DNA of 64,000 bases from an uncultured Bacteriovoracaceae bacterium (GCA_964563795.1 CAZLYB010000013.1:3107-67106), one strand, 5' to 3'; shown: positions 39,370 to 54,600, counted from the stretch's first letter. A program made the numbers and translations. Notes: generated from the letters alone by a model not told the origin.

Positions 39370-39401
39370 GATTGCTCCCCTCACATGGCCTTCCTATAAG
39401 A

Positions 39402-40268: not shown

Positions 40269-40274
40269 CGCCCG

Positions 40275-42452
40275 TCACCCCGCCTTCGCCGTGAAAAGGC
40301 TTCGCGAGATCTTCATTCCCTTGGCTTCCATCTCTTCCACGAACTTCGGAACGAAACCGGTTGGGATCACGCGCCCGATGACTTTTCGCTTTTTATCGAG
40401 GCCTTCCTGCTTGAATACGAAAATATCTTGAAGGCTCACCACCTCGCCCTGAATCCCCACGACCTCGGTGATGTGGGTGATTTTTCGGCTTCCGTCCGAG
40501 AGGCGGCTTTGCTGAATGATGATCCCCACCGCTGAAGCGATGTTCTCGCGGATCGCTTTGGCCGGTAGGCCCAACCCCGCCATCATCACGAGCGTCTCGA
40601 GACGCGCGATGGCTTCGCGGGGATTGTTCGCGTGAAGCGTGGTGAGCGATCCCGAGTGACCGGTGTTCATCGCTTGCAACATATCGAGGGCTTCCTGGCC
40701 GCGGCACTCCCCAACCACGATTCGGTCGGGACGCATTCTCAGGCAGCTTTTCACCAAATCCCGGATGCTCACTTCGCCCTCGCCCTCGATGTTCTTGGGC
40801 CGCGACTCAAGGCGCACCACATGCTCTTGCCCAAGCTGAAGCTCGGCTGAATCCTCAACCGTGATGATTCGCTCAGTGGCGGGGATGAAATTTGAAAGCA
40901 CGTTGAGCAAGGTCGTTTTCCCGGAGCCCGTTCCTCCGGAGACCAGGACATTCAACTTCGCCTCGACGCAGCATCTCAGGAAATCCGCGATCTCGGGAGT
41001 CATCGAGCCAAAGGAGATCAGATCCTTGGCTTCCATTCTTTTTTTGGGGAACTTTCGGATCGTGATGGTCGGGCCCCGGAGCGACAAGGGGGGGATGATG
41101 ATGTGAACACGCGATCCATCGCGCAAACGCGCGTCGACGTACGGCACTTTTTCATCAACGCGGCGCCCGAGCGGCGTCACGATTCGCTCGATCACCGTCA
41201 TCATCTGCTGCTCGCTGGAGAAGGTGACTTTCGAAAGCTGGGGTTTTCCGAGACGCTCGATGTAGATTTGATCCCGGGAATTGACCATGATTTCAGTCAC
41301 GCTCTCATCCGCAAGCAGATCCTCGAGCGGCCCGAGTCCCAGCGCCTCATCGAGGACTTCCTTCACCATCTGAGATTTGAGCTCTCGGCTATTCAGGAGG
41401 GACTCGGTGTCCTCGGCGCCAAGGACGTCGAGGATCGCTTTCTGCGTTTTCTCGCGCAAAACCGCCCTCTGCTTGGGATCGTTCGTGTCAGTATTGGTCC
41501 GCTTGAGGTCCATCTGCTCGACCAAGGCCTTGTGAACCCTCAGCTTCATCGCCGTCCAAGCGTCCAGCGGCGCGGACATGCTGCGATGGATCGGGTTGCC
41601 GTCGGATCGGGCTTGGCCAGATCCATCGGGGCTGGAGCTCGCGACTGCGGCCTGCGATTGCATCTTGGCGGCCACCCCGGTCGGCTTCTTGAGCTTGGCC
41701 AAACTCTCGAGCAGATTGGATTGCTGCATTTTTCGGACGATATCGTGATAAGCGCGCGCGACGGCGGTGTTCGGCGCGGCGATGCAAAGCGGAATGCTCT
41801 TCGCGAGCGAGCTTTCGCAAGTGGGGCCATCCTCGGGAATGGCGGCAAAAATCGACTTGCCCAAGTTTTTTTGAATCAGCTGGGGATTGATGATCGAGTT
41901 TTGGGAATATCGGTTCATGACCACTTGAACCATCTCGGGGGGGAAAAGCAGCTCCTGAATTTTTCCCAGCAGGCGCTTCGTCTGATTAATCACGATGATG
42001 TCGGCGGAGGTCACCACGTAGATGGCGCTCGCGAACTCGAATGCCTTAAGAGCCCATGGATCCGTCCCGCTCCCGCAATCCACGACGGTCCAGCTGAAGA
42101 CGTTGGTGACGGACTTCAAGAATCGTCCGAGCCCGTCCAAATCCAGGTCGCGCGCCACGATCGCGTCGCGGGGGGCGCCGATGTAACTGTAACCCGCCTG
42201 CGCGTTCACCATGAAGGGGGCGAGCGTCTTGGGATCCACCGGCCCCGGCGGCATCTTGCTCACGTCAATGATGCTCTTGGGGGGATTTTGATTCAAAATG
42301 ACGTTTTGATCGCCGAGGCTATTAAGGTCGAGATCAACGATCAATGGTCTTTGTTTAAATTCTTGGAGATAAGCGATGGCCAGGTTCGCGGCGAACACGC
42401 TTTTTCCGACCCCGCCTTTTCCGCCGACCACTGCGATGATATGCCCAGGCAT
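40275..42452 (-). CDS. Fusion of a CpaE/TadZ-like ParA/MinD ATPase domain and a CpaF/TadA secretion ATPase
   Basis: The N-terminus carries the deviant Walker [15 protein letters not shown] of ParA/MinD/CpaE. The C-terminal half carries the VirB11/CpaF core [15 protein letters not shown]…RLESRP…VGECRG with His- and Asp-boxes. It is one uninterrupted 725-aa ORF. Confidence 0.8.
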
Positions 42453-42469
42453 CGGTTACTTGCTCCCCA

Positions 42470-44206
42470 TCACTTCATCTTGACCCGGAAATTCCGCTTG
42501 AGGTCTTCCGTCCCATCCGAGGCGTTCTCGATGATTTGCGGAGTGATGAAAATCACGAATTGGGATTTCGACTTCCTGTAGTTCTTGGACCGCAGCAGCG
42601 TGAAGAGCGGATCGGTCCCTTCGCTGAACGACCCGGGGCTCGGATCATCCTTATTGAAGTCCGTGCCCACCGTGGTCGCGCTCACTCCGGCGATCGCGGC
42701 GCTTTCCGCTGATTTGACGTAAAGCTTGGTATCCACCCGGTGAGTCGCGGTGATGGGTTGCGTCCCTGACGCCGGAGTCCGACCCACGAGGTTGGTTTGG
42801 TTCACCTTGATATCGACTTGGATGTCCTCGCTTTGCCCCAGGATCGTGGGCGTCACGCCGAGCTCCAGCCCCACGTCCTGCTTGCCCGCCGAGACCTGCC
42901 CATTGGCTCCCTGGATCAAGAAAGGGAATTGGGTTCCCTCAAACAGGCTCGCGGCTTGGCCGCTTCTGACGACCAAGGTCCCGGTTTTCAAAATCCTGGC
43001 ATAGCCCGCGGCCTGGGCGCTTTGAAGCTTCGGCAATAAGCTTGAGATGGTCGCGCTGAACGAAACTCCCCCGCTTCCGGTTGTGGTGGTCGTTGCTCCG
43101 GCCGTCTGGCCGTTGCTGAAAGTGACCTCGGGACCGCTGGAGGTGAACCCCGGTTGCCATTTAAAGCCAAAGAGCCGGTTGTAATCCTTGGAAAGCTCCA
43201 CGAAGTAAGCCGTGATTCGAACCAGCTTATCCTGTTTTTTCGGGGGAGGCGCGTTCACGATGATGAAAGTCTGCACCAGATTCCGCCCGGGAAGCCGCGT
43301 CGCCTGGCCCTCCGCCTCGAACCGGCCCAAGGGATTGGCGGGTTTGATTTCAGGGAGATAGAGCAGCGCGATGTTCTTCGCACGGTTGGCTTGATCAATG
43401 GTATCGACGGTCCCTTCCAAGAAGATCAGTCCATTGACCACTCTCGTCTTCACGCCGGGGGCGAACACATTGATGTCTTCTTGAATTTTTTTGGCCAGGA
43501 ATTGAAGCGCCAGCGGCGAGAGCGTCGTGAGATTCATGATGAAATCCCCGTAGGCCTTGTCCCCCACGACGGTCAGAAGGCGAGCGTAGTCATTGGGGAC
43601 GAGGATCTCCCCTTCCAAAATGACTTTAGGCCCCACGATGCGGATGTCCAAACCTTCCACGTCGCGAAGCAAAGAGCGTACTTCACCAGCCACTCGAAGC
43701 AGATTGGAACCCGTGATCCGGGCGTTGAAAATCAGGCGAATCGTCCCATCCGCGTCACGTACCGTGATGTTTGTGTCCCCCGGTTTCAAGGGCTTGAAAA
43801 CGATCTGGCGCTTTTGACCGATTTTTACGAGCGTAGTCGCGAGCAGGGTGGGATTTCCGATGGTGATCCCGCTGACTTCGGGACTCACGTCAAAATTGAG
43901 ATCGACGGCTTTGTCTTCCCCCGAAGTCAGCAGCAGCCTCCTGCGATCCGCATTCGCCTCCGACTCATCATTGGTCAATCGGGATCGCCCCACGGATCTC
44001 GCACGGCGGGAGAATCGGGGCAGGGATTGAACAGGAACGGATTTAACTTCGGGCAAAGGCTGCGACTGCGGCATGGGAGCGGGCGGGACTTGAGGCGCGG
44101 GCTCCGTCACTAAGGACCCCCCGGATGGCGGATCCTCGGCGTGGAGCTCGCCGCCCGGCGCGGCGATCAGCAGCAAGAAGATCGGGAGAAGATTCCATCG
44201 TTTCAT
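42470..44206 (-). CDS. cpaC: Tad secretin CpaC/RcpA
   Basis: A signal peptide and the secretin C-domain …FVIFITPQII… . The protein is 578 aa. Confidence 0.8.
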   Translation of the reverse strand: MKRWNLLPIFLLLIAAPGGELHAEDPPSGGSLVTEPAPQVPPAPMPQSQPLPEVKSVPVQSLPRFSRRARSVGRSRLTNDESEANADRRRLLLTSGEDKAVDLNFDVSPEVSGITIGNPTLLATTLVKIGQKRQIVFKPLKPGDTNITVRDADGTIRLIFNARITGSNLLRVAGEVRSLLRDVEGLDIRIVGPKVILEGEILVPNDYARLLTVVGDKAYGDFIMNLTTLSPLALQFLAKKIQEDINVFAPGVKTRVVNGLIFLEGTVDTIDQANRAKNIALLYLPEIKPANPLGRFEAEGQATRLPGRNLVQTFIIVNAPPPKKQDKLVRITAYFVELSKDYNRLFGFKWQPGFTSSGPEVTFSNGQTAGATTTTTGSGGVSFSATISSLLPKLQSAQAAGYARILKTGTLVVRSGQAASLFEGTQFPFLIQGANGQVSAGKQDVGLELGVTPTILGQSEDIQVDIKVNQTNLVGRTPASGTQPITATHRVDTKLYVKSAESAAIAGVSATTVGTDFNKDDPSPGSFSEGTDPLFTLLRSKNYRKSKSQFVIFITPQIIENASDGTEDLKRNFRVKMK

Positions 44207-44209
44207 TCT

Positions 44210-45049
44210 TTACCTACGCCCATTGGCGGGAGCCCGCGGCGCGCGCGAGTAATCCGCCCCCAGCACATCGGAAAACAAGCTCGAACCCAAATTGACCCTC
44301 TCGGTGTCATCATTATTGCGCAGTGAAAGCGTAAGCGCGTGATCGCTATTGGCCATCACGAGCGCGAGCGCTTGCGCTTGGTTGGGATCCACTTCAAGAG
44401 TGATGGAGCCGAAAGAGGAATCCTCGTTCAAATTCTTGATCCTCTCCTTGCCGCCGAAAAGATCCGGCTCGATCAAGCGAGGCACGTTGTTGGTGACGTT
44501 TTTTCCCACGGAGAGGACGACCACGTCTTGCAGGAAGGTTTTCGCGATTTTCCCTTCTTTTCCCCCGCCAAGATCCAGGACAGCGATCAGATCGACCCGA
44601 TCGCCGGGCTTCACCAATTTTGAAACGCCGCTGATCTCATCGATGCGGATCGCGAAGGCGCGTTTTCCCGGGGTGATTTGAGGCGCGAGGCCCGTGCGCA
44701 TATTGGGCTCCGTCACTTTGTTCTGGGTGACTTGCTCGCCTTTTTTGATGGGAACCAGGGCGACGGTCCCGGCCATGCTCTTAAGGCCCCGTGTCGTCTC
44801 CTTATCCTCTTCCTTCTTCTCAAAATAAATGGCGTTCGGCTCCAAAAACCGCTTTGGGATTCGCTCGATGCTCAAAACGGTTTCGTTGATCGTTTCAAGC
44901 TCGCGAATGTCCTTCTTCGCCTTGATGACGAGGACTTCGGCGCCGAATTTCCGGCTGGCCTCTTCTTCGATGCTGGAAACGTAACTCATGACGAAGAACA
45001 CCGCCAAAGCGGCCATCAAAAGCGACAGGGTGAGCGCGCGATTATTCAT
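44210..45049 (-). CDS. cpaB: Flp pilus assembly protein CpaB/RcpC
   Basis: A TM anchor MNNRALTLSLLMAALAVFFV, followed by SAF and RcpC domains. The start is placed at Met39 of the tracked ORF; Met25 is also possible. Confidence 0.7.
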   Translation of the reverse strand: MNNRALTLSLLMAALAVFFVMSYVSSIEEEASRKFGAEVLVIKAKKDIRELETINETVLSIERIPKRFLEPNAIYFEKKEEDKETTRGLKSMAGTVALVPIKKGEQVTQNKVTEPNMRTGLAPQITPGKRAFAIRIDEISGVSKLVKPGDRVDLIAVLDLGGGKEGKIAKTFLQDVVVLSVGKNVTNNVPRLIEPDLFGGKERIKNLNEDSSFGSITLEVDPNQAQALALVMANSDHALTLSLRNNDDTERVNLGSSLFSDVLGADYSRAPRAPANGRR

Positions 45050-45617
45050 ATTGGAGCGGGCCTCCGCAAATCTGGAACTGGCTTGCCTCATCGAGGCGGT
45101 AAAGCGCGGTTGCTTTGGAATCCGGGCCGTAAGGGGGACCTGAGAGCGGCAAGATGGCGGCATCCCCGGAACCGTTTCGAACGACGTTCGCCTGCGTGCA
45201 CAGGGTCACCGTGTTCCTCACGCGCACGAGCGCGCGTTCCGCTGGCTCTTGCCCGGTCTCATCCTGCGCGGGCGCGCGCCTTCGAGTGACGTTCTTGGTG
45301 GGGGCTTTCGGGATGTACCGTTCGCCGGGCTCACTGGGGCTGGCGTTCTCCGCAACGCCGATCACCATCTGATTGTAACTTTTTGCAGTCAATTCGGCCT
45401 CCCGCAGGGAGAGATAGGGATACACGGGACTATTGTAGGTGAGCCAGAGCGCCTGGGCGCGGGCGTACTGCTGATTCACGATCCCCACTTGAATCGCCGT
45501 ATTCACGCGGATGAGAATCAAGGCGAGCGTGAGCATCATCGGAAGCATCAAAAGAAATTCGATGACGCTTTGGCCCGATTGATCCAAGATCAATGCTCCA
45601 GACGGGTTAACACCCAT
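45042..45617 (-). CDS. TadE-like pseudopilin
   Basis: The N-terminal prepilin-like segment QSGQSVIEFLLMLPMMLTLAL contains the G/xxxxEF motif. Confidence 0.55.
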   Translation of the reverse strand: MGVNPSGALILDQSGQSVIEFLLMLPMMLTLALILIRVNTAIQVGIVNQQYARAQALWLTYNSPVYPYLSLREAELTAKSYNQMVIGVAENASPSEPGERYIPKAPTKNVTRRRAPAQDETGQEPAERALVRVRNTVTLCTQANVVRNGSGDAAILPLSGPPYGPDSKATALYRLDEASQFQICGGPLQYE

Positions 45618-46161
45618 TATCGATCACTCCCTTCAGGCGATCCATTTCCTGCCGGCATTCCTCGACAGTGGGCTCTCGAAGCAGCCAACTCTCGGAAATG
45701 AGCCGCAGCGTGTTGACTGAATCCTGACCGGAGGACTTCCTTCCCGCGCCGGCCAAAGGGATCAGAAACACCCTGCTCTTAAATGCGTATCGGACTCCCT
45801 GAAGCCAACTGAAGTACTGGTTGTCTTCCTGGTACTGCGAAGGGGGCTTGATGCGCAGCCCCGAAACCTCCTGATCGCTGCCCCACGCCGCATCCCCCTT
45901 CGCGATGAAGGGGAATCGATCCTGGGAAGCCTGGGACTGGCCTCGCTTCAAAGTGCGGCTGATGACGTCAGCGGCGCGCTGGAGCTGATCGTCTTTGCCA
46001 GGGCCAGCTGAAAGATAGGCGCGGGCCGACATGAAAGTGGCGTAATGCGCGTAGTTCCCGAACCCAAAAACTAAAGAAAGTTGATAGAAAAAAAAGACGA
46101 ACCCCATCAGGAACATCAAGGTCAACGCGAATTCCACGGTGGACTGGCCTTTGGAGTTCAT
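45607..46161 (-). CDS. TadE/TadF-like pseudopilin
   Basis: N-terminal MNSKGQSTVEFALTLMFLMGFVFFF. Confidence 0.55.
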   Translation of the reverse strand: MNSKGQSTVEFALTLMFLMGFVFFFYQLSLVFGFGNYAHYATFMSARAYLSAGPGKDDQLQRAADVISRTLKRGQSQASQDRFPFIAKGDAAWGSDQEVSGLRIKPPSQYQEDNQYFSWLQGVRYAFKSRVFLIPLAGAGRKSSGQDSVNTLRLISESWLLREPTVEECRQEMDRLKGVIDNGC

Positions 46162-46469
46162 CGCCCCCCCGTCCGGGTCGGACTGATGAACATGCGAAAA
46201 TTGCCGCTTCCCGCCTGAGGTCTCGCGCGCGGATGATACTGGACGTCCTGGCCGCCCTCTTCCTCATACCCCACCGCCTTCGGATGCCCGTATTGGTAAG
46301 TACGCGCGAAATCGCTCGAGATGGGCTTCATGAGGCGGGCCTCGATATTCATCTTCCTGAGGCTCGCGGCGATCATCGCGAAGAAGCCAGCGATGATCGC
46401 AATGAGCAGGATGTACTCGGTGATCGCCTGCCCGCTTTGATTTTTTACGGCCAAATCCATTTTTCCCAC
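46158..46469 (-). CDS. Pilin-like protein (Flp/TadE-like N-terminus)
   Basis: NQSGQAITEYILLIAIIAGFFAMIA carries the Flp-type G/xxxxEY cleavage motif. At 103 aa it is longer than a typical Flp pilin. Confidence 0.45.
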   Translation of the reverse strand: MGKMDLAVKNQSGQAITEYILLIAIIAGFFAMIAASLRKMNIEARLMKPISSDFARTYQYGHPKAVGYEEEGGQDVQYHPRARPQAGSGNFRMFISPTRTGGR

Positions 46470-47014
46470 CCTAAATGCCCGAATCCTTCCTTGAGCGGAT
46501 GCACGCCCCCCGCAACGAGCAGCGCCGCCGCCCCGATCGCGATTCCAAGGGGTATCTTTAGGGATCGATCAAATTGAAAATTTACTAAAGGGGGCAGGCG
46601 CCATAGGACAGCCTGCATGAGGGCGCGGCATTTAATAAGAAACTGCGAAGCTCTCCCTCGCCAAATCAATGACAGGGCGGCGAGCGCTCCCCCGAACAAA
46701 ACCCCCATCACCGCCACTTCAGCACAGTAAAGAGGACCACCCCACGCTCCGAACGCCATGAGCAGTTTCACGTCGCCCGCTCCCAAGTGCCGGAGGGCGT
46801 AAATCCACCCATACAGAAGAAAACCCGCCAAGATTCCCAATGCTGAAAATCCGGCGCCGCTCCATCCTCCCTGCCCCCAATGGAACAAAAGACCGAGCAT
46901 GAGCGAAGGAATCGTCAACGCATTGACGATTTTACCCCAAAGAAGATCGGTGATCGCGGCGAGAACCGCAGTGAGAATGAGGAAGTAAAACGGGATTTCA
47001 ACTGTCCCAGACAT
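46445..47014 (-). CDS. tadV: Prepilin peptidase (TadV/CpaA, A24 family)
   Basis: Polytopic, with the catalytic LGAGDVKLL motif. The start is placed at MSGTVEIPFYF. Confidence 0.7.
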   Translation of the reverse strand: MSGTVEIPFYFLILTAVLAAITDLLWGKIVNALTIPSLMLGLLFHWGQGGWSGAGFSALGILAGFLLYGWIYALRHLGAGDVKLLMAFGAWGGPLYCAEVAVMGVLFGGALAALSLIWRGRASQFLIKCRALMQAVLWRLPPLVNFQFDRSLKIPLGIAIGAAALLVAGGVHPLKEGFGHLGWEKWIWP

Positions 47015-47222
47015 AGAGCGGCGCTCGTCCGGTTTTGAGGTCCTTTTCAAGCTGGCCCCCGAGCTTCAGCATGCCTTGGTCCAGCGTCTTGATGATCGTT
47101 CGGGAGATGGCGACCGCGCTGACGACCACGGCCGAGAGGATCAATAGATATTCAACGGTGCCCTGACCGTCTTCTTCCAACCAGAATTCACGCCAGAATG
47201 AGCGAGCCGATTCCTTCAGCAA
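46998..47222 (-). CDS. flp: Flp-family pilin
   Basis: The leader is followed by GQGTVEYLLILSAVVVSAVAI (Flp motif). Confidence 0.75.
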   Translation of the reverse strand: MLKESARSFWREFWLEEDGQGTVEYLLILSAVVVSAVAISRTIIKTLDQGMLKLGGQLEKDLKTGRAPLYVWDS

Positions 47223-47236: not shown

Positions 47237-47470
47237 TTATTGATCCAACGGATTCGTGGCATCAATCATATTTTTTTCGGTTCGATCGAGGATCGTGCTC
47301 AGGGAAGAGCCGAATTTCGCGCGGAACTTCAGCGCGACCATCACGACGATGGCCAAAATCAAGATGTACTCGGTCGTCGTCTGGCCTTCTTCATCAGACC
47401 AAAACGCGGAGAGTCGCTTTTTCCATGCTGCGAGCGCCATAGATACCCCTGAATTCATGCCTCTACCCAA
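47237..47470 (-). CDS. flp: Flp-family pilin (second copy)
   Basis: EEGQTTTEYILILAIVVMVAL carries the Flp motif. It lies 14 nt upstream of the first copy and is preceded by an AT-rich 76-nt intergenic region. Confidence 0.75.
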   Translation of the reverse strand: MGRGMNSGVSMALAAWKKRLSAFWSDEEGQTTTEYILILAIVVMVALKFRAKFGSSLSTILDRTEKNMIDATNPLDQ

Positions 47471-47546: not shown

Positions 47547-48284
47547 TCAGAAAAAGATCAATGTTGCCCAGAGGTTATCCTCGCGGCCTTGCTCGCCCTG
47601 GAGCTCATTCAAAGCCTCCAAAGCCGCTCCTCGCCCCATGAAGAATGCTTCCCAAAGCTTCTGACGCTCCCCCTCCAAAAGCCCGTCCGTGTGGAGGAAC
47701 AACCCATCCCCGGAATGGATCCGGCACTCCAGGATCTCGGGCTCCAAATCTTCATTGAGGCCCAGGGCCGCCAAAGGGACGCCCTCCTCGCACAGCGTCG
47801 CTTCTTTCTTGAAGGGATCGAGTAATCGCCCATAGCTTCTGGGCGTCGTCAGCTCCGCCATCCCGCTCTGCCTGAAAATCCAAGCCTGGCAGGAGCCGAT
47901 GGAACCCAGGGAGAGCTGATCCCCGTCCAAGAAGCCCGCCACCAAGGATGCGCCCGCCTTTTCATGAACGCTTCGATTCCTGTTCTTCGACAGAAGCTTG
48001 CGGTTGGAGTGAACAAGCGCGTTGAAAAGCACGTTCCCTGCGAGTGAATAATAATGGCGAATCACGAAAGGCAGCGTCGCCTCGCGATCCCCTACCTCCT
48101 TCACAAGAAACGCCTGCACCGCCTCGCACGCCAGCTTGGAAGCGGCCGATCCCGCAGATGGGCCTCCGAATCCATCAGCCACCGCGAAAACTCCTCTTTC
48201 GGCCGAAGCCCATCCGAAATCCTCCTGAGCGGGCCTCTGGCCAACCGCCGAGCAATGGGCGATCTCGGAAATCAATCGGCTCAT
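47547..48284 (-). CDS. PP2C-family Ser/Thr protein phosphatase
   Basis: The motifs QRPAQEDFGW, VADGFGG and LHTDGL follow PP2C metal-binding motifs 1, 2 and 8. Confidence 0.7.
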   Translation of the reverse strand: MSRLISEIAHCSAVGQRPAQEDFGWASAERGVFAVADGFGGPSAGSAASKLACEAVQAFLVKEVGDREATLPFVIRHYYSLAGNVLFNALVHSNRKLLSKNRNRSVHEKAGASLVAGFLDGDQLSLGSIGSCQAWIFRQSGMAELTTPRSYGRLLDPFKKEATLCEEGVPLAALGLNEDLEPEILECRIHSGDGLFLHTDGLLEGERQKLWEAFFMGRGAALEALNELQGEQGREDNLWATLIFF

Positions 48285-50665
48285 TCCGCCTCCCCTTCTT
48301 CAATGACGGCGCTCGCGGGATAGCGCGAGAGCTTGCGCGAGGCGCGCTCATGATAAAGGTCATCCTTGGGGACGAGCGCCAGGATCTCCTTGTATTTTTT
48401 CTGAGCCGTCGAGAAATCACTGTAGCTCTCCGCCAGGACCGCCTCCGTGTAAACCCCCTTGGCCCTCTCATGAAGCGCAGAACGGGTTCGCTCCACGCCC
48501 TGTTGGCTCGCCGAGAAGGAGGGATCGATGATGCTGGCCCGCTGATACAGCTGATAGGCTTGCGGGATGTTTCCCGAGTCCTCATTCTGTTTCGCGGCTT
48601 GCACGATCGGATCCCGCTTGGACTGGATCGCCTGCAAGGAGGCTTGAATCAACGCCTTGGAATGCCTCAGTAGCTTCGCGTCGCTTGCGCCGATTTCCTT
48701 AATTTTATAAAATCTCGAAATCGCGTCGCGGTATCTGCCCCGCCGCCTCAAGCTGAGGCCTTCCTTCAGCAAGGCCCACCCCTTTGCGTTGATTTCTCTT
48801 TGGACTTCCCGCTCTTGCTCGAGCAGTCTTCGCTTGGTCTCATCCGCTTCGATTTCTTGCCGCCATTGAGCGACCAAGGCGTTCTCCGGATCAAGCGCCA
48901 GGATCTGGCCGAAAATCTCCTTGGCGATGTCGTACTGCCGCTTGGACATCTTCAATGAGGCTTCTTCGGTTAATTGCCCCACTTTGACTTTGATGCGCTC
49001 TTCCTCTTCCTTCTTTCGAGCCTCTTCAAGCTGAGCCTCCCTTTTTTGACGGCCTTCCTGGGCGTATCGCTCGATCTCGCGGGAGTCCTTGTAGTCGGGG
49101 ACGAGCTTGAAAATTTTCTCGATCTCATAGAGGGCTCGGTCGAAATCACCGGCCTTGTAATATTCAAACGCCCGATCATGCTGCTCCTGGACGAATTTTT
49201 TTTGCTCTGCGGTCAGCGACTCAAAGGTCGCTTGCTTCGCGGCATCAGCCGCGTTCTCGGCGGACGGCTTCTTTTGAGGCGCATCGATGACATCCTCATC
49301 CCCCGGTCCGAAATACCAGATGAAGGCGCAAGTCAGGGCGATCACCAGATATTGCTTCGGCTTGGAAAGATTCCTGAATTTTTCGATCAATCCCTTGGGT
49401 TTTGCCTGCTCTTGCGGGGCTCCCACTCCGGTGATCCCTGCGATCGAAGAATCACCGACCGCCGCTGAAGAAAAAGGCAGCGCGGACGGCGGCGGCATCA
49501 TCGGCGAATGGTACGCGGCATTGAAATTCTCAAAAGCCGAATCCGCCTGGATTTCCTCCTCCTGAGGCAAAGAGACGAGCGCCGCCTCCTGCTTGAGGTA
49601 ATCCTTGCTATGGGCCTGGAATTCAAACTCGACGTTTCCAATTCGGATGCGGTCGCCGGCCGAGAGCTCCTGCTCCTGAATTTTGACTTGATTCACGTAG
49701 GTTCCGTTGGAGGAACCAAGATCCTTGATCAAAAACCGGTGCTGATTCCTGAGGATGACCGTATTTTTTCGGGAAGCCTTTTTATCGTTCAATACGATAT
49801 CGCACGTCTTCCCACGCCCCAGGCTCACTTCATCCTTGATGATTTCATACTCAGTGACGTTCGCGGTGCCTGGGTCAAAAAGCAGCTTCGAATCGACTCT
49901 CGCCACTGAGACGACTTGGGTATGCTCGCCCGTGGGGGCATCCAGAGCTGGAACTTCAGGCGCCTCCAAATCAATCCCCGTTCCCTCCTCGTGCGCGTCG
50001 GCGGAAGCCTCGGCGAGGAGCGGGGGATCCTCAAGCGTGAGACCCGGGACTTCATTCGTCTTTGAATCTTCTTGGGAATCTTCTTGGGAATCTTCTTGGG
50101 AATTTTCGGGAGAAGCCGTGATCTCCTCCTGAACAGGGGCGTTCTCCAGAGGCGCGGGGGAGTCCTCAAAAAAGGCCACCGGCTGCGTCGCTTCGGGATC
50201 TTCGGATTTCAGCGGTCCTGATTCAAACGGCAACGGCTCGCTGGGCGTCTCCAGCGGGGCTTCGGCGGCGACTTCCTGAAAAGGCGAAGTGATCTCGCCG
50301 GAATCCGGATGATCCGTCGCGGGAGCAGCTGATTCAACGGCGGATTCCGGCGCCGGCTCGGAGAACGGGGAGGCTTCGAGCGAAAGCCTCGCCAAATAGG
50401 GGCCGATCGCGATGACATCGCCTGACTTCAAAATGGCCTTCGTGCACTCCTGCCCATTGATGGTCAGAGGCGCGAATTCGCTCTGGCGCTCCACTTGAAT
50501 TCCGCCAGTGACGCGGCTAAAGCGGGCGTGTTCCCGCGAGATCGCGCGATCATCCAGCCGGATCACGCAGCCTTCGGCCCTGCCCACCAGGACATCGCCT
50601 TCAATCGGCACGCTCTTGATCTGCTCGCCATCCTTTAAGATGGTCAGAATCGCGGCCGCGCCCAT
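48281..50665 (-). CDS. Membrane-anchored protein with two FHA domains, an acidic repeat linker and a C-terminal TPR/coiled-coil region
   Basis: FHA-1 at the N-terminus (…VGRAEGCVIRLDDRAISREHARF…). FHA-2 lies around residues 260-340 (GRGKTCDIVLNDKKASRKNTVI…LGSSNGTYVN). One TM segment (LVIALTCAFIWYF) is followed by TPR-like repeats. Confidence 0.7.
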   Translation of the reverse strand: MGAAAILTILKDGEQIKSVPIEGDVLVGRAEGCVIRLDDRAISREHARFSRVTGGIQVERQSEFAPLTINGQECTKAILKSGDVIAIGPYLARLSLEASPFSEPAPESAVESAAPATDHPDSGEITSPFQEVAAEAPLETPSEPLPFESGPLKSEDPEATQPVAFFEDSPAPLENAPVQEEITASPENSQEDSQEDSQEDSKTNEVPGLTLEDPPLLAEASADAHEEGTGIDLEAPEVPALDAPTGEHTQVVSVARVDSKLLFDPGTANVTEYEIIKDEVSLGRGKTCDIVLNDKKASRKNTVILRNQHRFLIKDLGSSNGTYVNQVKIQEQELSAGDRIRIGNVEFEFQAHSKDYLKQEAALVSLPQEEEIQADSAFENFNAAYHSPMMPPPSALPFSSAAVGDSSIAGITGVGAPQEQAKPKGLIEKFRNLSKPKQYLVIALTCAFIWYFGPGDEDVIDAPQKKPSAENAADAAKQATFESLTAEQKKFVQEQHDRAFEYYKAGDFDRALYEIEKIFKLVPDYKDSREIERYAQEGRQKREAQLEEARKKEEEERIKVKVGQLTEEASLKMSKRQYDIAKEIFGQILALDPENALVAQWRQEIEADETKRRLLEQEREVQREINAKGWALLKEGLSLRRRGRYRDAISRFYKIKEIGASDAKLLRHSKALIQASLQAIQSKRDPIVQAAKQNEDSGNIPQAYQLYQRASIIDPSFSASQQGVERTRSALHERAKGVYTEAVLAESYSDFSTAQKKYKEILALVPKDDLYHERASRKLSRYPASAVIEEGEAE
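50064..50107. repeat. 12-bp tandem repeat (GAATCTTCTTGG x3 plus a partial copy) encoding SQEDSQEDSQED
   Basis: Seen directly. It is in frame within the FHA protein's acidic linker. Confidence 0.7.
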
Positions 50666-51648
50666 CAGCCCGTCCCTTCAGGCGCTTGCATCAGCTCCAC
50701 CGTTTTTTGAAGCTGGTCCTTCGCCTCACGAAAAGGAGTGCTCTCGGGTTCGCGGTAAAGCAGCCTCATCACCGCCTCGTAGTGGCCTTTCGCTTCTTTC
50801 AATTTGCCGCTTTGGAGGCCTTTTTTCCCGCGCTCGAGGTGGAACTTCACTTCGTCCTCGATCATCTTATTGCAGTTTTGAAGATACAAAGTGGCGAGCC
50901 GGTGGCCCGGGGCAACTTGAAGAACCGTTTCAAACTGAGTCTTGGCCCGCAGATAATTTTTTTCCCGAAACTCGCGAAACCCCCCTTTGAAGAACATTTC
51001 AGCGGAACGAGTGGCTTCTGGCGTGGCCACGCTTGGGGGCAAGAAAGAGGCTAAATCCCGGATTGGCGGATTTTCCGGCCGGGAACGCGATTTTTTGGGC
51101 CCTCCCGGGGAGAGGACAAAGTAAAAAACCAAGGCGACTGCGGCCAGACCGCCTAATTTGAAAAGCCGGGAGCGTGAACCCGATGCCCCCGAGTTTTTTC
51201 CCAAGGACTGGACGTGTTTTCGAGCGGTCTCCAGCTGAGCATGCCCCAAAAGAATTTTCGAGACTTCCCTGGAGGGGGCGGTCAAAAGGCTGGTCGCGGA
51301 TTGGTTTGAAACGAGGAATTCGAGCACCGTTTCGCCCAAATGGATCGTATCGCCCAGGTTGAGGACCGCTTCCCGGGCGGATTTCCCATTATGCAAAATT
51401 CCATTCGCGCTCCCCGCATCGCGCACCGACCAGCTTCCCTGAGCCGTTGAAATGAGCTCGGCGTGCTGCCGCGAAGCTTTCAAATCCAAAAGGACGACGT
51501 CATTTTCTTCCCCGCGGCCAATGGTCGCGCGTGGAGACGTCAGGACATAGAGCGCGCCCTGGTCGGGACCTTGGGCGACCTTCAAGCGCGCAAGTTCCCC
51601 GTTTTGCCGAGGAACCTGAGCCGTCCTGAATTTCAAGGCCCCCTTCAT
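50665..51648 (-). CDS. FHA-domain membrane protein with C-terminal TPR repeats
   Basis: FHA segment …ATIGRGEENDVVLLDLKASRQHAEL…GSANGILHNG… and a TM segment LGGLAAVALVFYFVL, followed by TPR-like repeats. The start is placed at MKGALKF (51648), 2 nt after the upstream stop. Confidence 0.65.
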   Translation of the reverse strand: MKGALKFRTAQVPRQNGELARLKVAQGPDQGALYVLTSPRATIGRGEENDVVLLDLKASRQHAELISTAQGSWSVRDAGSANGILHNGKSAREAVLNLGDTIHLGETVLEFLVSNQSATSLLTAPSREVSKILLGHAQLETARKHVQSLGKNSGASGSRSRLFKLGGLAAVALVFYFVLSPGGPKKSRSRPENPPIRDLASFLPPSVATPEATRSAEMFFKGGFREFREKNYLRAKTQFETVLQVAPGHRLATLYLQNCNKMIEDEVKFHLERGKKGLQSGKLKEAKGHYEAVMRLLYREPESTPFREAKDQLQKTVELMQAPEGTG

Positions 51649-51650
51649 CT

Positions 51651-53285
51651 TCAACTCATTTCCGTCCGTTTGGAGGCGGCAAGCAAGTACGCCCTCGCGG
51701 CCCCGCCCCACGGCCCGAAAGCGGCGCAGGACACTCGATAGCTCACCCCGGAAAACTCATAATCCTCGCCAATCGGATCCCCTCCCACCGAGGCGCGCTC
51801 GAAAAGATCTTTCACGAATGAAGCGAACGCCTGGTCACGGGCCACGGAAGAAAGCTCCTGTCCCACCGCTTCATCCGCCCGGATCCCGCTGATCTCCTCC
51901 ATCACTGAATTGGAGTAAAAAACCTTCCTCTCCCCGTCGCAGATCACGAGCGCGAAAAGACCGAGCTCGCCGAGCATTTTTGCGGGCGCAACGATCTCTT
52001 CCAGTGAAGGCTCAGAGTTTCCCGCCGCTGAGCTCAGCTCTCCTGAACCGTTTGAGCGGGGAATCCTTTGAAGGGCGGAATTCACTCGATCGTAAATCGC
52101 GTTCATCTCCTCAAACCGGAACTCCCGCGTCACTTGAGTCAGATCGCCCTTGAGGGCTTTGTCGAGGTCTTCACCCAGCACCGTCATGGGTTTGAGGGTG
52201 AGGCGGTACAAAATCAGCAAAAGCAAGGCCGCAAACAATCCCACCACGATGAATGTCTCGGAGTAAGCGAGCCCCACTTCGCCCATCGAGGGAACGCTCA
52301 AAGCGCTGTCGATCGACACCACGGCCATCGCCACGACGACGTTGCTTCCCGTGATCGCGCTCAGCACTTTGACGGGCTCGATGGCGACGACGGTGTCGGA
52401 ACCCGCGATTTTCACGATGCCGGTTTCACGCCCTGAGCGGAAAAGCTCCCGCGCCTTCACGGCCTCAACCGCCTCGACTCCGGAGGTGAGGTACTGATTG
52501 AACTTCGAGCCCGGCGCCAAGATCCTGTTCTCGAGGTCAACCAAGAGCGACATCCGCACGCCTTCGCCGTAGCCCACACTCCCGATTTCCGTTTTGGTCT
52601 CCATTTGAGCCGACAAGGCCTGCGTGTTGCGTTCAGCGATCTGCTTCGCCATGGCGCGGGCGCGCTTCCCTACTTCACGCAAGATCGCATCTTGATTCGA
52701 CTGAACGAGCGGGTAAACCGAGACGAATAAATTCAGCAAGACGAATATTCCGAAAATCGCGCCCACTAAAAATCGCCATTCTGTCTTGAAATTGAGCTGG
52801 TAAAAAAATGGCATGAATTTTCGGTCAAAAAACCACGTCAGCCGCCCCTTGAGATCTTTGGGGACTTCCTCAGCAGCCGGGACCTCGGACAAAGGCAAGG
52901 AAGACTCCCCTCCGGTCGCAAGAAGCGCGGAGGGATGCTGAATGACCGGAGCGAGGGGAAGCCCCGCCTGAAACCCCTGATTCGAGAAGTTCGGGGCGGA
53001 CGGTCGCACCAGCTGAAGCACGTACTCGCCGACGCTGATACGGTCGCCCGCTTGAATCGGCTTTTTGCGGGTCAACGCGCCGTTGATGAAGGTTCCATTC
53101 GAGCTGTTTTGATCTTGAATCTCGATTTCATCGCCGTTTACGACCAGGACGCAGTGGCGCTTGGAAACTTTAGCGGACGGAAGGACCACGACGTTGTCTG
53201 AGGCCCTGCCGATGGAATTCTCACCCTCGCTGATTTCCCAGCTCGTGCCGCGCTTCGGTCCGGAGATGACTCTTAGTTTATACAC
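51651..53285 (-). CDS. FHA-domain membrane protein with a large extracytoplasmic domain
   Basis: N-terminal FHA segment (GRASDNVVVLPSAKVSKRHCVL…SSNGTFING), a TM segment FLVGAIFGIFVLLNLFV, and a roughly 330-aa C-terminal domain. Confidence 0.65.
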   Translation of the reverse strand: MYKLRVISGPKRGTSWEISEGENSIGRASDNVVVLPSAKVSKRHCVLVVNGDEIEIQDQNSSNGTFINGALTRKKPIQAGDRISVGEYVLQLVRPSAPNFSNQGFQAGLPLAPVIQHPSALLATGGESSLPLSEVPAAEEVPKDLKGRLTWFFDRKFMPFFYQLNFKTEWRFLVGAIFGIFVLLNLFVSVYPLVQSNQDAILREVGKRARAMAKQIAERNTQALSAQMETKTEIGSVGYGEGVRMSLLVDLENRILAPGSKFNQYLTSGVEAVEAVKARELFRSGRETGIVKIAGSDTVVAIEPVKVLSAITGSNVVVAMAVVSIDSALSVPSMGEVGLAYSETFIVVGLFAALLLLILYRLTLKPMTVLGEDLDKALKGDLTQVTREFRFEEMNAIYDRVNSALQRIPRSNGSGELSSAAGNSEPSLEEIVAPAKMLGELGLFALVICDGERKVFYSNSVMEEISGIRADEAVGQELSSVARDQAFASFVKDLFERASVGGDPIGEDYEFSGVSYRVSCAAFGPWGGAARAYLLAASKRTEMS

Positions 53286-53650
53286 AGCTCATCCCCATCC
53301 CGGATCGAGCACCGCTCGAGAGTACCCACCGGGAGCTCGAAAGTATCCGTCGCTTTGCGATCGCGAAGCGGGAGAACTTTCCAAGGGCGCACGTCGGAAT
53401 GCGCGGAAGTCACCACCCACTTCAGCGCGCCGGACGACGAACGTTCACGGCGTGCGAAAACGACGTCGATCGAGACGCTCATGAACCACATGTGAATGTC
53501 GTTGCAGCGAGGAAACCACATTCCCTCACCCTCCCTCAGGCTCGTTCTCCCGATCAGGCCTTTGAGCCGGTCGAAAAAACACTTTGCCACATGACACTTA
53601 TCGGCAATAACCAATTGATTTTTTAGGGAATACAGCTGGATGGTCTTCAT
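53273..53650 (-). CDS. DUF192-domain protein
   Basis: …GLIGRTSLREGEGMWFPRCNDIHMWFMSVSIDVVF… matches the DUF192/COG1430 core. The start is placed at MKTIQLY. Confidence 0.5.
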   Translation of the reverse strand: MKTIQLYSLKNQLVIADKCHVAKCFFDRLKGLIGRTSLREGEGMWFPRCNDIHMWFMSVSIDVVFARRERSSSGALKWVVTSAHSDVRPWKVLPLRDRKATDTFELPVGTLERCSIRDGDELCIN

Positions 53651-53682
53651 ACGGCCCATTCTCCCTTGAATTCCCAAGAAAA

Positions 53683-54600
53683 TCACTGGCCCGGAGAGAT
53701 CATGCTGAGCACAAAAGGCCCAAAAATCATCAACATGACGGCGGGCAGGATGAAAAGCACCAAGGGCAAAATGACCTTTTGGGACGCTGCGGCACCTGCT
53801 TTTTCTGCGCGGAGCATCCTTTGGCTCCGAATTTGATCGGATTGCTGACGCAGGATGCGGCCGATCGAGGCCCCCATCTGATCCGCAGAAATCAGGATCG
53901 CGATGAACGAATTGATCTCGGTCATCCCAATCCGGGTCCCCATTTCACGCAGCGCTTCCTGCCGGGAAGAACCCACCTTGATTTCCTTGAGGAGCTGGGC
54001 GAACTCGTCCACGAGGGGACTGGGATTGGCCTTTTCGACGACCTTCCCGATCGCCCCGATGAAATCAAGGCCCGCTTCCGTGGAAAGCGCCAAAAGATCG
54101 ACGATGAACGGCATGGACTTCAAGATTTGGCGCTGCCGCTTTTGAATCCGGGAGCGCATCCACAAGTCGGGATAGAACCAACCGAGGACCCCGGAGACCA
54201 AGATCAGAAACAGCGAGAGATCGAGGAACCCGCCCGCTTTGAGGATTCCCCCGATGATCGGGAAAAAAACAATATTAAATAATTTAAATGCAATAAAATC
54301 ATCGGGATCGAACTCCTCGCTGAGCCCGGCCGAGACGAGGCGGCGCTGGTAATAAGCGCGGAAGTAATCCCAGAAAGCCTTGCCTCGGACGATCGGCGAA
54401 ACGTACTGGGTGAAGAAAGGGCGTGTGTATTTGACGAGCGGGTTCGAGGCCTTGCGGTCACGTTGATCCCCCAGATTGTCCGCCGCGGCGCGGCTTTCGC
54501 CTTCTTTGAGGAACTCGCGCGCGACGATGTAGACCGCCACGGCGATCAAGCCATAGGCGAACCAGACGACGAATTGACCGCGTTCCAAGATCGCTGACAT
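53683..54600 (-). CDS. tadC: Tad/Flp pilus assembly inner-membrane protein TadC (T2SS-F domain)
   Basis: T2SS-F-domain pattern PFIVDLLALSTEAGLDFIGAIGKV…SSRQEALREMGTRIGMTEI…, with three TM helices. Confidence 0.7.
   Translation of the reverse strand: MSAILERGQFVVWFAYGLIAVAVYIVAREFLKEGESRAAADNLGDQRDRKASNPLVKYTRPFFTQYVSPIVRGKAFWDYFRAYYQRRLVSAGLSEEFDPDDFIAFKLFNIVFFPIIGGILKAGGFLDLSLFLILVSGVLGWFYPDLWMRSRIQKRQRQILKSMPFIVDLLALSTEAGLDFIGAIGKVVEKANPSPLVDEFAQLLKEIKVGSSRQEALREMGTRIGMTEINSFIAILISADQMGASIGRILRQQSDQIRSQRMLRAEKAGAAASQKVILPLVLFILPAVMLMIFGPFVLSMISPGQ

Follow-up and report, generated by a model that had tools for sequence, protein, structure and literature searches.

A tadC-linked cassette of three membrane-anchored FHA proteins and a PP2C phosphatase in a Tad pilus locus of a Bacteriovoracaceae bacterium

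Results

Gene organization of the cassette

Four co-directional genes, FHA3, FHA2, FHA1 and PP2C, occupy positions 47547-53285 on the minus strand of the window, which is the whole 64-kb stretch of DNA that was analysed. They locate behind tadC and a DUF192 gene, within a complete Tad/Flp pilus locus. An earlier note on this DNA had described three membrane-anchored FHA proteins together with a PP2C phosphatase in this region, which was borne out by ORF calls, Pfam and hydropathy. The first gene of the cassette is tadC (53683..54600, minus strand; Pfam T2SSF, E 9e-17), encoding the T2SSF-type inner-membrane platform protein, and its stop overlaps the start of the DUF192 gene (53273..53686, minus strand; Pfam DUF192, E 3e-13). 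The DUF192 gene is followed by FHA3 (51651..53285, 544 aa), FHA2 (50665..51648, 327 aa), FHA1 (48281..50665, 794 aa) and, as the last gene, PP2C (47547..48284, 245 aa), all on the minus strand. A 348-aa ORF was rejected as FHA2, since the start is at 51648 and the resulting 327 aa agree with P0241, a database protein of this contig. The cassette junctions are three overlaps of 4, 13 and 4 nt, one 2-nt spacer and one 1-nt overlap. The six genes in the order tadC-DUF192-FHA3-FHA2-FHA1-PP2C are translationally coupled. When the cassette was scanned for promoters and terminators, sites were no more frequent than in shuffled sequence.

Two Flp-type pilin genes (46998-47222 and 47237-47470, minus strand) lie between the PP2C gene and tadV. 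Their products of 74 and 77 aa carry the motifs 'G-QGTVEY' and 'G-QTTTEY', each followed by a hydrophobic helix, and in the related locus L081 a Flp1_like gene stands at the equivalent place. The remaining Tad genes were assigned by Pfam at 39402..47050 on the same strand (Peptidase_A24, TadE, RcpC, Secretin, CbiA+T2SSE and T2SSF). They comprise the tadV peptidase, Flp-like and TadE-like pilins, cpaB/rcpC, the secretin, a tadZ-tadA fusion and tadB. The fusion protein has 725 aa and is matched by both the TadA and the MinD models.

FHA3 resembles a membrane sensor

The topology of FHA3 was derived from hydropathy, the positive-inside pattern and an AlphaFold2 model (pLDDT 85.9). Its order is FHA domain, disordered linker, amphipathic helix, TM1, PDC/PAS-like domain, TM2, HAMP-like hairpin and PAS domain, and a catalytic output domain is absent. 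On the whole protein, Pfam matched FHA (E 8e-17) and PAS (E 4e-4). The cytoplasmic FHA domain (residues 1-95; 53001..53285, minus strand) carries the complete pThr-binding signature, namely G26-R27, S41-x-x-H44 and S61-x-N63-G64-T65. FHA3 has no signal peptide and its FHA fold starts at residue 2, which supports the placement of the FHA domains in the cytoplasm rather than the periplasm. The FHA domain of FHA3 resembles those of GarA and DgcB more closely than that of YscD.

TM1 (about residues 170-190; 52716..52778, minus strand) has a Kyte-Doolittle peak of 2.57, is a helix in the model, and is flanked by a K/R-rich stretch upstream and an acidic one downstream. The periplasmic domain of about 150 residues (about residues 191-338; 52272..52715, minus strand) begins with a long helix and continues as an alpha/beta PDC/PAS-like fold, and its fold matches are the sensor domains of CitA and WalK. 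TM2 (about residues 339-364; 52194..52271, minus strand; Kyte-Doolittle peak 2.49) has K/R residues downstream and none upstream. About 180 cytoplasmic residues follow TM2 and form the HAMP-like hairpin and the PAS domain. The HAMP-like helix-loop-helix (residues 365-410; 52056..52193, minus strand; sequence KPMTVLGEDLDKALKGDL...EEMNAIYDRVNSALQ) is modelled with helices at 334-378 and 392-407. It is the most conserved segment of FHA3 (0.76), with P366 nearly invariant. The PAS domain (residues 428-540; 51666..52004, minus strand; Pfam PAS on the fragment, E 3e-5) reaches the protein end, adopts a PAS fold in the model and has a weak profile match to phytochrome PAS.

Among full-length structural matches, FHA3 comes closest to the sensor module of WalK, a histidine kinase. 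In a Pfam search of FHA3 fragments (E<=1), PAS alone was detected, with no match to HAMP, Cache or PDC models. Because Pfam HAMP was not detected, the HAMP-like assignment was made from structure and motif only, and both the HAMP and the PDC assignments come from one AlphaFold2 model and from fold matches without reported query ranges. The fold thus suggests that FHA3 may contain a TM - PDC/PAS - TM - HAMP - PAS sensor module. The earlier note had given FHA3 a cytoplasmic FHA domain, one TM helix and a large extracytoplasmic domain. The cytoplasmic FHA domain stands, whereas the single TM helix is replaced by two, and the C-terminus is cytoplasmic as judged by hydropathy, charge flanks and the AlphaFold2 model.

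The same note had assigned FHA3 to the class of T3SS ring proteins (SctD: YscD, EscD, PrgH), which does not agree with two TM helices, a single PDC/PAS-like periplasmic domain and a cytoplasmic HAMP-PAS C-terminus. SctD has a single TM helix and three ring-building (alpha-beta-beta-alpha-beta) motifs, and it lacks the cytoplasmic HAMP-PAS tail and the conserved pThr pocket of FHA3. Ring-building motifs were sought in the AlphaFold2 model and its fold matches and were not found, and a periplasmic SctD domain is not among the listed top fold matches. The NCBIfam SctD model TIGR02500 (type_III_yscD) scored 31.4 bits against FHA3 (cutoff 86), and the match is confined to model positions 1-62 of 413, the FHA part. 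Pfam 'Yop-YscD_cpl' matches were rejected as a sign of SctD ancestry; they are a generic FHA-clan overlap and are duplicated on every FHA domain here. By Pfam, the neighbours of the cassette are Tad/Flp genes only, and no T3SS gene was found near it.

FHA1 and FHA2 share an FHA-TM-TPR core

FHA2 (Pfam FHA, E 6e-14) consists of an FHA domain (18-113), a helix, a TM segment (162-180), a disordered stretch and a five-helix TPR-like domain (199-321), for which generic TPR proteins were the only matches. FHA1 has two FHA stretches (E 2e-29) and TPR_2/TPR_14 matches in Pfam. Its parts are FHA-N (1-95), an acidic disordered linker (96-245), FHA-C (258-352), a short hydrophobic anchor of 15-17 residues at 439-453, and a TPR/coiled-coil region at about 470-790. 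By hhalign, the two proteins could be aligned across FHA-TM-TPR (probability 99.8%, E 8e-28, 302 columns), and on this alignment FHA1 and FHA2 are judged to be paralogues with an FHA-TM-TPR core.

The linker of FHA1 contains 38 D+E versus 2 K+R, and a 12-bp x 3.7 tandem repeat within it (50064..50107, minus strand; TRF score 81, 96% matches) encodes SQEDSQEDSQED. Pfam, composition and TRF thus confirm the earlier description of two FHA domains separated by an acidic SQED-repeat linker. However, the linker is the least conserved segment of FHA1 (0.20), so the repeat is local rather than family-wide, and the SQED repeat was rejected as a conserved phospho-motif in favour of a local 12-bp slippage repeat. 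Thr249 of FHA1 (codon 49919..49921, minus strand) is invariant in 37 homologues within this otherwise unconserved linker. Thr249 is a candidate phospho-acceptor; the motif around it, [D/E]-x-x-T-[K/R/Q]-[V/L/I], precedes FHA-C by about 12 residues.

Neither a signal peptide nor a lipobox was found in FHA1 or FHA2, and the only hydrophobic segment of each is internal. The charge flanks of the FHA2 TM segment are ambiguous with a weak positive-inside signal, and the FHA1 anchor is short, for which reason the TPR regions of FHA1 and FHA2 are placed in the periplasm by inference. TadD is an outer-membrane lipoprotein. FHA1 and FHA2 are like the TadD pilotin in having TPR-type helical repeats, probably in the envelope, but unlike TadD they have no lipobox and carry an inner-membrane anchor behind cytoplasmic FHA domains. 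The suggestion that their TPR arrays replace a missing TadD is therefore not sustained, as both proteins would be held in the inner membrane by an internal helix and have no signal peptide or lipobox.

FHA pockets, phosphatase and kinase search

The four FHA domains were compared for the loops conserved in pThr readers, G-R, S-x-x-H and (S/T)-x-N-G. In the FHA alignment, the loop set is complete in FHA3, complete with a T to I change in FHA2, and altered from H to N in FHA1-C, and FHA1-N lacks the third loop, S-x-N-G-T. By this alignment, the pThr-binding signature is retained wholly or for the most part in three domains, FHA1-N being the exception. Since FHA1-N has no S-x-N-G-T and FHA1-C has Asn for the conserved His, not every FHA domain need read pThr. 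In sequence and fold, the FHA domains are nearest to the pThr readers GarA, OdhI, FhaA and DgcB. The literature search found no reported phosphorylation, kinase or FHA ligand for any cassette member, and nothing of relevance for DUF192.

The last gene encodes a PP2C/PPM Ser/Thr phosphatase (PP2C_2, E 3e-11) and has an ATGA overlap with FHA1. The product matches the Stp1/IreP PP2C model (E 3e-19, covering positions 8-227 of 232), and its matches among PDB sequences are tPphA, PstP and PppA. The metal-binding motifs ED, DGxGG, DG and DN are present as E21-D22, D37-G-F-G-G41, D200-G and D236-N237; across 12 orthologues, conservation reaches 90% or more at E21, D22, D37-G41 and N237.

No kinase was found in the cluster, in agreement with the earlier note. 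No Pkinase match was obtained in the 64-kb window (Pfam on greedy non-overlapping ORFs of at least about 135 aa), and a six-frame search of the window gave no Hanks catalytic-loop motif. The Hanks motif was also absent from all of the related cassette loci (0/24), versus 11/57 for the same pattern in unrelated FHA loci. These results support a kinase encoded elsewhere, as had been proposed.

The cassette corresponds to Bd0470-Bd0475 of Bdellovibrio bacteriovorus

Related loci were collected by tblastn and profile synteny. In 23/24 of them the sequence immediately upstream of the cassette matches TadC, the DUF192 gene stands between tadC and FHA3 in 24/24, and a PP2C-like ORF follows FHA1 in 16. 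The order tadC-DUF192-FHA3-FHA2-FHA1 was found in Bdellovibrionales, Bacteriovoracaceae, Halobacteriovorax, Pseudobdellovibrio and Oligoflexia MAGs. In the closer relatives the cassette is inside the tad locus; identity to the Bdellovibrio and Halobacteriovorax relatives is about 22-28%.

The operon Bd0470-Bd0475 of B. bacteriovorus has been described in Duncan et al. 2019 (PMC6561027), in Front Bioinform 2025 (PMC12034629) and in a bioRxiv preprint (10.64898/2026.07.08.737194). Its genes are annotated as TadC (Bd0470), conserved secreted protein (Bd0471), FHA proteins (Bd0472, Bd0473 and Bd0474) and 'serine phosphatase' (Bd0475), so that gene order and content are as here; in both the phosphatase is PP2C-like, and the small conserved protein is of the DUF192 family in the present locus. 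The cassette is the Bdellovibrionota tadC operon and the counterpart of Bd0470-Bd0475; orthology to Bd0472-0475 is based on synteny, annotations and the published architecture of Bd0474. tadC corresponds to Bd0470, the DUF192 gene by its position to Bd0471, and the PP2C gene to Bd0475. Bd0474 has two cytoplasmic FHA domains, a TM helix and an extracytoplasmic TPR domain, and FHA1 has the same FHA-FHA-TM-TPR build. A published description of the Bd0472-type sensor architecture was not found. The TadZ-TadA fusion is common to both organisms. In contrast, the cassette here is contiguous with the other tad genes and tadV, whereas in B. bacteriovorus tadC is at a separate locus and TadV is missing. 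The presence of signalling genes adjoining tadC had already been noted in that species.

All six genes of the B. bacteriovorus operon are predation-essential in Tn-seq of strain 109J (fitness <= ~0.13 in the conditions of the supplement). The Bd0474 transposon mutant attaches to prey but does not kill or round it, and the tadC mutant does not attach. Bd0474 also binds Bd0075 in a two-hybrid assay, and a contact between Bd0475 and Bd0473 is predicted by AlphaFold-Multimer (ipTM 0.604).

Discussion

We propose that the cassette is a regulatory scaffold which serves a predatory, Kil-like Tad machine and depends on pThr marks set by a distant kinase and removed by PP2C, and we give this reading a probability of about 0.6. 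A Hanks-type kinase encoded elsewhere would phosphorylate Thr; for B. bacteriovorus, Bd3148 has been put forward in the literature as a candidate. Its targets might be the T249 motif of FHA1, T119-x-x-L122 in FHA2, or residues of TadZA, TadB or TadC. The cytoplasmic FHA domains, tethered to the inner membrane, would bind the marked Thr sites, by which a multivalent scaffold could be built or licensed at the Tad platform, and the co-encoded PP2C would remove the marks and reset the system. The periplasmic TPR regions of FHA1 and FHA2 may touch envelope partners. From its fold, FHA3 could be a dimeric transmembrane sensor (PDC - HAMP - PAS) without enzymatic output, which would relay a periplasmic cue, e.g. 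prey contact or pilus state, to the phospho-scaffold by protein contacts. In a more specific and tentative version, which we hold to be less likely than not, FHA3 and the Bd0472 family as a whole would represent a novel receptor class, with a histidine-kinase-like sensor that controls a tethered pThr-reading FHA domain. Such a receptor would be the switch long looked for, by which contact with prey, or else tension or retraction of the Tad pilus, leads to pilus licensing, with FHA1, FHA2 and PP2C serving as phospho-scaffold and reset.

The partner of Bd0474 raises the question of which machine is served. Bd0075 has a cytoplasmic GYF domain, a TM helix and periplasmic TPRs and is not a Tad component, therefore the cassette could serve a neighbouring process. 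It might leave the Tad pilus itself uncontrolled and instead tie contact with prey to polarity or to a different envelope machine (e.g. gliding motility or motility arrest), and the linkage to tadC would then reflect attack-phase co-expression only. The retained attachment of the Bd0474 mutant, as opposed to the tadC mutant, would fit this explanation, and so would a review proposing that Kil-cluster FHA proteins tie contact signals to motility arrest. The gliding protein GltG is also among the NCBIfam matches of the FHA domains; however, that match covers the FHA domain only (37-70 bits versus a cutoff of 650), and the cassette is joined to tadC by overlapping genes in the loci examined and is located inside the tad locus in the closer relatives. 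We consider the explanation unlikely.

The phosphatase could instead be of the partner-switching (SpoIIE/RsbU) type or act on a non-FHA substrate, with FHA domains that bind unphosphorylated partners and no Thr kinase involved. This would account for a kinase in none of the 24 loci, and it draws on a Pfam SpoIIE match to PP2C (E 2e-5) and on the annotation of Bd0475 as 'stressosome / stage II sporulation phosphatase'. But neither a STAS nor an anti-sigma partner is encoded in the cluster, PP2C is matched best over its full length by the Stp1/IreP family, and FHA3, FHA2 and, for the most part, FHA1-C have kept the pThr pocket, which makes this explanation quite improbable. Even less probable is a mainly structural role, in which FHA3 would form an SctD-type inner-membrane ring and the three FHA proteins a ring or platform round the Tad machine, with FHA folds as phospho-independent packing modules. 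FHA3 does share with SctD a cytoplasmic FHA fold at the N-terminus, with a TM helix and then a periplasmic part behind it, but the topology and fold results for FHA3 have already weakened this idea.

How prey contact is sensed and Tad/Kil is switched on in bacterial predators is an open question according to the Kil papers, the DgcB paper and the 2025 review. The locus extends the gene inventory only slightly, since the operon had previously been found predation-essential in B. bacteriovorus. It presents the cassette as a fixed companion of tadC across Bdellovibrionota, without a kinase of its own in the loci examined, and it supplies concrete residues and domains to mutate in a tractable model organism. 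What is new as a lead is confined to FHA3, the first FHA protein of the cassette, which is built like a sensor without a kinase. WalK/CitA-type histidine kinases have a DHp/catalytic ATP-binding core, whereas FHA3 has none and carries an N-terminal FHA domain instead. The core is missing because FHA3 stops behind the PAS domain, at residue 544. Its relatives are of the same length, and the best 150 relatives of the sensor part all have about 585 aa or fewer.

The scaffold reading has a parallel in the T6SS PpkA-PppA-Fha1 pathway (summarised in PMC5995506), in which an FHA scaffold and a PP2C are encoded with a contact-triggered envelope machine, and PppA, the PP2C of that pathway, is among the PDB sequence matches of the phosphatase here. 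Unlike in the T6SS pathway, whose kinase is PpkA, the cluster here has no kinase, and it has three FHA proteins, all of them membrane-anchored and one with a predicted periplasmic sensor of its own. The T6SS threonine phosphorylation pathway has also been invoked for the Tad-like Kil system of Myxococcus xanthus, with KilD (MXAN_3108), MXAN_4648, MXAN_4649 and KilF, whose authors propose prey-contact signalling by the FHA proteins enriched in Kil (Seef et al. 2021, PMC8460266). Kil is likewise a predator's Tad-like machine with several FHA and FHA+TPR proteins, one of which adjoins GspF-type platform genes. Three Myxococcota loci obtained with the FHA3 profile (L037, L042 and L076) were rejected as Kil counterparts; their similarity is confined to the FHA domain or extends no further than TM1, no Tad genes adjoin them, and L076 encodes an FHA-GAF-cyclase adjoining a Hanks kinase. 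In Kil the ATPase itself (KilF) bears an FHA domain, whereas the ATPase here is a fusion with TadZ, and KilD is described as cytoplasmic, unlike the membrane-anchored FHA proteins here. The Kil secretin and the secretin of this locus have the same list of BON, pilus-N and secretin domains.

The FHA and PP2C genes form a coupled unit with tadC

A tightly packed gene run occupies the minus strand from 54600 down to 37687 of the window, which has a G+C content of 50–60%, and the gene identities along the run were assigned with Pfam and NCBIfam. In the order of transcription, it starts with tadC (T2SSF), a DUF192 gene, three FHA proteins and a PP2C phosphatase, continues with two small Flp pilin genes, a prepilin peptidase gene (Peptidase_A24), an Flp-like gene and two TadE-like genes, and ends with cpaB/rcpC, the secretin, a 725-aa TadZ(MinD/ParA)-TadA fusion, tadB and a secreted RHS-repeat protein. 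The interval 47547–53285, singled out by the earlier note, corresponds exactly to FHA3 (51651–53285), FHA2 (50665–51648), FHA1 (48281–50665) and the PP2C gene (47547–48284). The junctions from tadC to PP2C overlap or nearly touch each other, with a GTGA overlap (tadC/DUF192), an overlap of 13 nt (DUF192/FHA3), a spacer of 2 nt (FHA3/FHA2), a 1-nt overlap in TGATG (FHA2/FHA1) and an ATGA overlap (FHA1/PP2C). Therefore, these six genes constitute one translationally coupled unit (the cassette), and no internal excess of promoters or terminators emerged from a consensus scan.

Two Flp-type pilin genes (46998–47222 and 47237–47470, minus strand; 74 and 77 aa) lie between the PP2C gene and tadV, and each product has a hydrophobic helix after its motif ('GQGTVEY' and 'GQTTTEY', respectively). 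A third Flp-like gene occupies 46158–46469. tadV (46445–47050, minus strand) provides a dedicated prepilin peptidase (Peptidase_A24) within the tad locus; B. bacteriovorus reportedly has no TadV and uses PilD instead. The TadZ (MinD/ParA-like)-TadA ATPase fusion (40275–42452, minus strand), with a low-complexity linker at about residues 250–330, is an unusual arrangement shared with the TadZA described in B. bacteriovorus. The secretin (42470–44206, minus strand) shows a secretin domain with weak BON and T2SS-T3SS_pil_N matches, which is the domain list given for KilC, the secretin of the Myxococcus Kil system. The RHS-repeat/DUF6531 protein (37687–39384, minus strand; 565 aa), whose gene closes the tad operon of this likely predator right behind tadB, has a signal-like N-terminus and could be a cargo or tip-associated factor.

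The cassette is conserved in Bdellovibrionota

Full-length homologues of FHA3, FHA2 and FHA1 with 45–56% identity come from Bdellovibrionota metagenome bins. The related loci comprised 23 with long FHA3 relatives from a one-genome-per-species scan and L081, reached through the homologue P0025, and they include Halobacteriovorax sp. CON-3, Bacteriovoracaceae, Pseudobdellovibrio and Bdellovibrio sp. The order tadC-DUF192-FHA3-FHA2-FHA1 is retained across these 24 loci. A PP2C-like ORF follows FHA1 in 16 of the 24 (11 by BLAST and 5 more by profile), and a contig end interrupts at least five of the loci without it. In closer relatives, the cassette runs on into tadV, flp, tadE, cpaB, secretin and tadZA like the window, and in distant relatives it is separate from the remaining tad genes. 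The DUF192 gene (53273–53686, minus strand) keeps its place between tadC and FHA3 in all 24 loci (L001–L022, L026, L081). Its positional B. bacteriovorus counterpart, Bd0471, is predation-essential in Tn-seq; a literature search on DUF192 returned nothing relevant. On the 1.68-Mb contig of L081, the PP2C-like gene and the flp genes are separated by a 550-aa gene (15886–17538) without a Pfam match, for which the window has no equivalent at this place.

Predicted phosphothreonine readers and an intact phosphatase without a kinase

The FHA and PP2C domain calls are far above chance, and the observation of the earlier note holds with corrections. Pfam detected the FHA domain in FHA3 (E 8e-17), in FHA2 (E 6e-14) and over two stretches of FHA1 (E 2e-29), FHA-N and FHA-C, together with TPR_2 in FHA1 (E 8e-9). 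All four FHA domains were aligned, and family conservation was inspected alongside. FHA3 carries the full G-R / S-x-x-H / S-x-N-G-T signature, invariant in 39 homologues. The signature is present with T→I in FHA2 and with H→N in FHA1-C, and its third loop is missing in FHA1-N. By these residues, the cassette FHA domains look like phosphothreonine readers. The PP2C gene product matches PP2C_2 (E 3e-11) and the Stp1/IreP PP2C model (E 3e-19, positions 8–227 of 232), and contains the PPM motifs ED (21–22), DGFGG (37–41), DG (200–201) and DN (236–237). In 12 orthologues, residues E21, D22, D37–G41 and N237 are conserved to 90% or more, and the protein has sequence matches in the PDB to tPphA, PstP and the T6SS phosphatase PppA.

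No Pkinase domain was found in the window with Pfam on greedy, non-overlapping ORF calls of about 135 aa or more, and a six-frame search of the window gave no match to the Hanks catalytic-loop motif. The same motif was found in none of the 24 cassette loci (389 kb), whereas it recovered kinases in 11 of 57 unrelated FHA loci of the same scan (Fisher p = 0.03). One of these 11, L025 (7786–11700) from a Deltaproteobacteria MAG, has an FHA-FHA-FHA-PP2C-kinase (Hanks) cluster, in contrast to the kinase-less Bdellovibrionota cassette. These results support the earlier proposal that the kinase is encoded elsewhere, and its location outside the cluster turns out to be a family trait. In Bdellovibrio, Bd3148 has been suggested as the kinase for DgcB.

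FHA1 and FHA2 are related FHA-TPR proteins

FHA2 starts at 51648 and has 327 aa, in agreement with the database protein from the same contig. In a profile-profile comparison, its residues 18–317 aligned with residues 257–609 of FHA1 (probability 99.8%, E 8e-28), so FHA1 has the FHA2 build, to which it adds a second FHA domain at the N-terminus and an acidic linker, and its TPR region is longer. The linker (residues 96–245) has 38 acidic and 2 basic residues and contains SQEDSQEDSQED, coded by a 12-bp tandem repeat of 3.7 copies at 50064–50107. The acidic linker noted before does lie between the two FHA domains. No other part of the family is less conserved (mean commonest-residue frequency 0.20), and its repeat is therefore a local accident rather than a family feature.

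Most FHA1 and FHA2 homologues contain a single hydrophobic segment. The bias of the charges around it supports an N-in/C-out orientation for FHA1 (net +3.8 before, +1.1 after) and is weak for FHA2 (+2.5 before, +1.9 after); thus we infer a periplasmic location of the TPR parts, which agrees with the published prediction for Bd0474. Both proteins lack a signal peptide and a lipobox and are therefore no TadD-type outer-membrane lipoproteins; the suggestion that they substitute for TadD is not supported. Thr249 of FHA1, in [D/E]-x-x-T-[K/R/Q]-[V/L/I], does not vary among 37 sequences although its linker is otherwise unconserved, and T119-x-x-L122 of FHA2 is nearly invariant. Both are candidate phospho-acceptors.

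FHA3 has a sensor-like build with no kinase

The hydropathy of FHA3 reveals two strong helices, at 172–190 (peak 2.57) and 346–364 (peak 2.49), with K/R-rich sequence upstream of the first, acidic sequence between them and K/R downstream of the second. In the AlphaFold2 model (39 homologues, mean pLDDT 85.9), the FHA domain (residues 1–95) is followed by a disordered linker (97–134), a conserved amphipathic helix (145–167), TM1, which extends into the periplasm as a long helix (to residue 225), a compact alpha/beta domain (243–326), TM2 running on into a helix-loop-helix (334–378 and 392–407), and a PAS fold (428–539) at which the protein ends. The segment after TM2, KPMTVLGEDLDKALKGDL...EEMNAIYDRVNSALQ, is the most conserved of the protein (0.76) and looks HAMP-like by modelled fold and motif. 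Pfam gave no HAMP or Cache/PDC model in FHA3 even at E ≤ 1, and therefore the HAMP and PDC assignments come from fold and motif only.

A search with the sensor part (residues 140–544) against 1.84 billion cluster representatives matched 483 of them at E ≤ 1e-3. The best 150 of them share the same fixed architecture: the full-length ones have 465–585 aa, mostly more than 510, with the match starting near residue 125–190, and no longer kinase-bearing form occurs among these 150. No paper describing the architecture of Bd0472 was found in the literature. The kinase-less sensor build is the one fresh point of this analysis, and it offers a specific protein and residues for testing how prey contact is sensed.

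A probable regulatory scaffold on the Tad platform

The cassette corresponds to B. bacteriovorus Bd0470–Bd0475 and belongs to a known operon family already flagged experimentally. Bd0470 is listed as TadC, Bd0471 as a conserved secreted protein, Bd0472 to Bd0474 as FHA-domain proteins and Bd0475 as a 'serine phosphatase', all with very low Tn-seq fitness (Duncan et al. 2019 and its supplement, PMC6561027). A Bd0474 transposon mutant attached to prey without killing or rounding it, and the authors of that work placed Bd0474 in one operon with tadC. A 2025 study (PMC12034629) described Bd0474 as two cytoplasmic FHA domains with an extracytoplasmic TPR domain, found its two-hybrid binding to Bd0075 (GYF-TM-TPR), and reported an AlphaFold-Multimer contact between Bd0475 and Bd0473 (ipTM 0.604). 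A 2026 preprint (bioRxiv 10.64898/2026.07.08.737194) reported the TadZA fusion and a separate tadC locus with FHA/TPR/PAS genes alongside. FHA and FHA-TPR proteins also abound in the related Kil system of Myxococcus (KilD, MXAN_4648, MXAN_4649, KilF), for which its authors proposed a contact-triggered phosphorylation cascade by analogy with T6SS (PMC8460266).

The cassette is probably a regulatory scaffold that depends on phosphothreonine and is attached to the Tad platform (probability about 0.6). The analysis shows the operon structure, the obligate tadC linkage, the membrane anchoring and the absence of a kinase from the cluster, together with an intact PP2C and phosphothreonine pockets that are full or almost full in every FHA domain but FHA1-N. 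A distant Hanks kinase would write the phosphothreonine marks, the FHA domains would read them and assemble or license the Tad machine, and PP2C would reset the scaffold. The periplasmic TPRs of FHA1 and FHA2 may bind envelope partners, and FHA3 may pass a periplasmic cue through its HAMP-PAS part to the scaffold.

The earlier note assigned FHA3 the topology of T3SS ring proteins (YscD/PrgH). This topology is not borne out, given the two TM helices; the NCBIfam SctD model reaches only 31 bits with FHA3, against a cutoff of 86, and matches within the FHA part only (model positions 1–62 of 413). A purely structural SctD-like ring is very improbable. The Pfam 'Yop-YscD_cpl' matches were rejected as an SctD sign, since they occur with each FHA domain of the cluster and reflect FHA-clan membership. 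The cassette might instead serve mainly another machine, for instance in gliding or pausing, through Bd0075-like partners; the Bd0474–Bd0075 interaction is in favour of this reading and the constant company of tadC speaks for the Tad platform, which leaves it unlikely. We consider a kinase-independent or partner-switching reading quite doubtful.

Other genes in the window

A three-gene signalling cluster (26329–28624, plus strand) encodes a CheX phosphatase, a stand-alone receiver domain and an HD-GYP-type (HD_5) protein. The sole match of a 156-aa ORF (2245–2715, minus strand), far from any flagellar genes of the window, is the FliG C-terminal domain (E 6e-12). Genes for biotin carboxylase, biotin carrier and carboxyltransferase occur as two separate sets, at 30934–36253 and 56640–61825; one adjoins an HMGL-like lyase and the other a methylmalonyl-CoA mutase.
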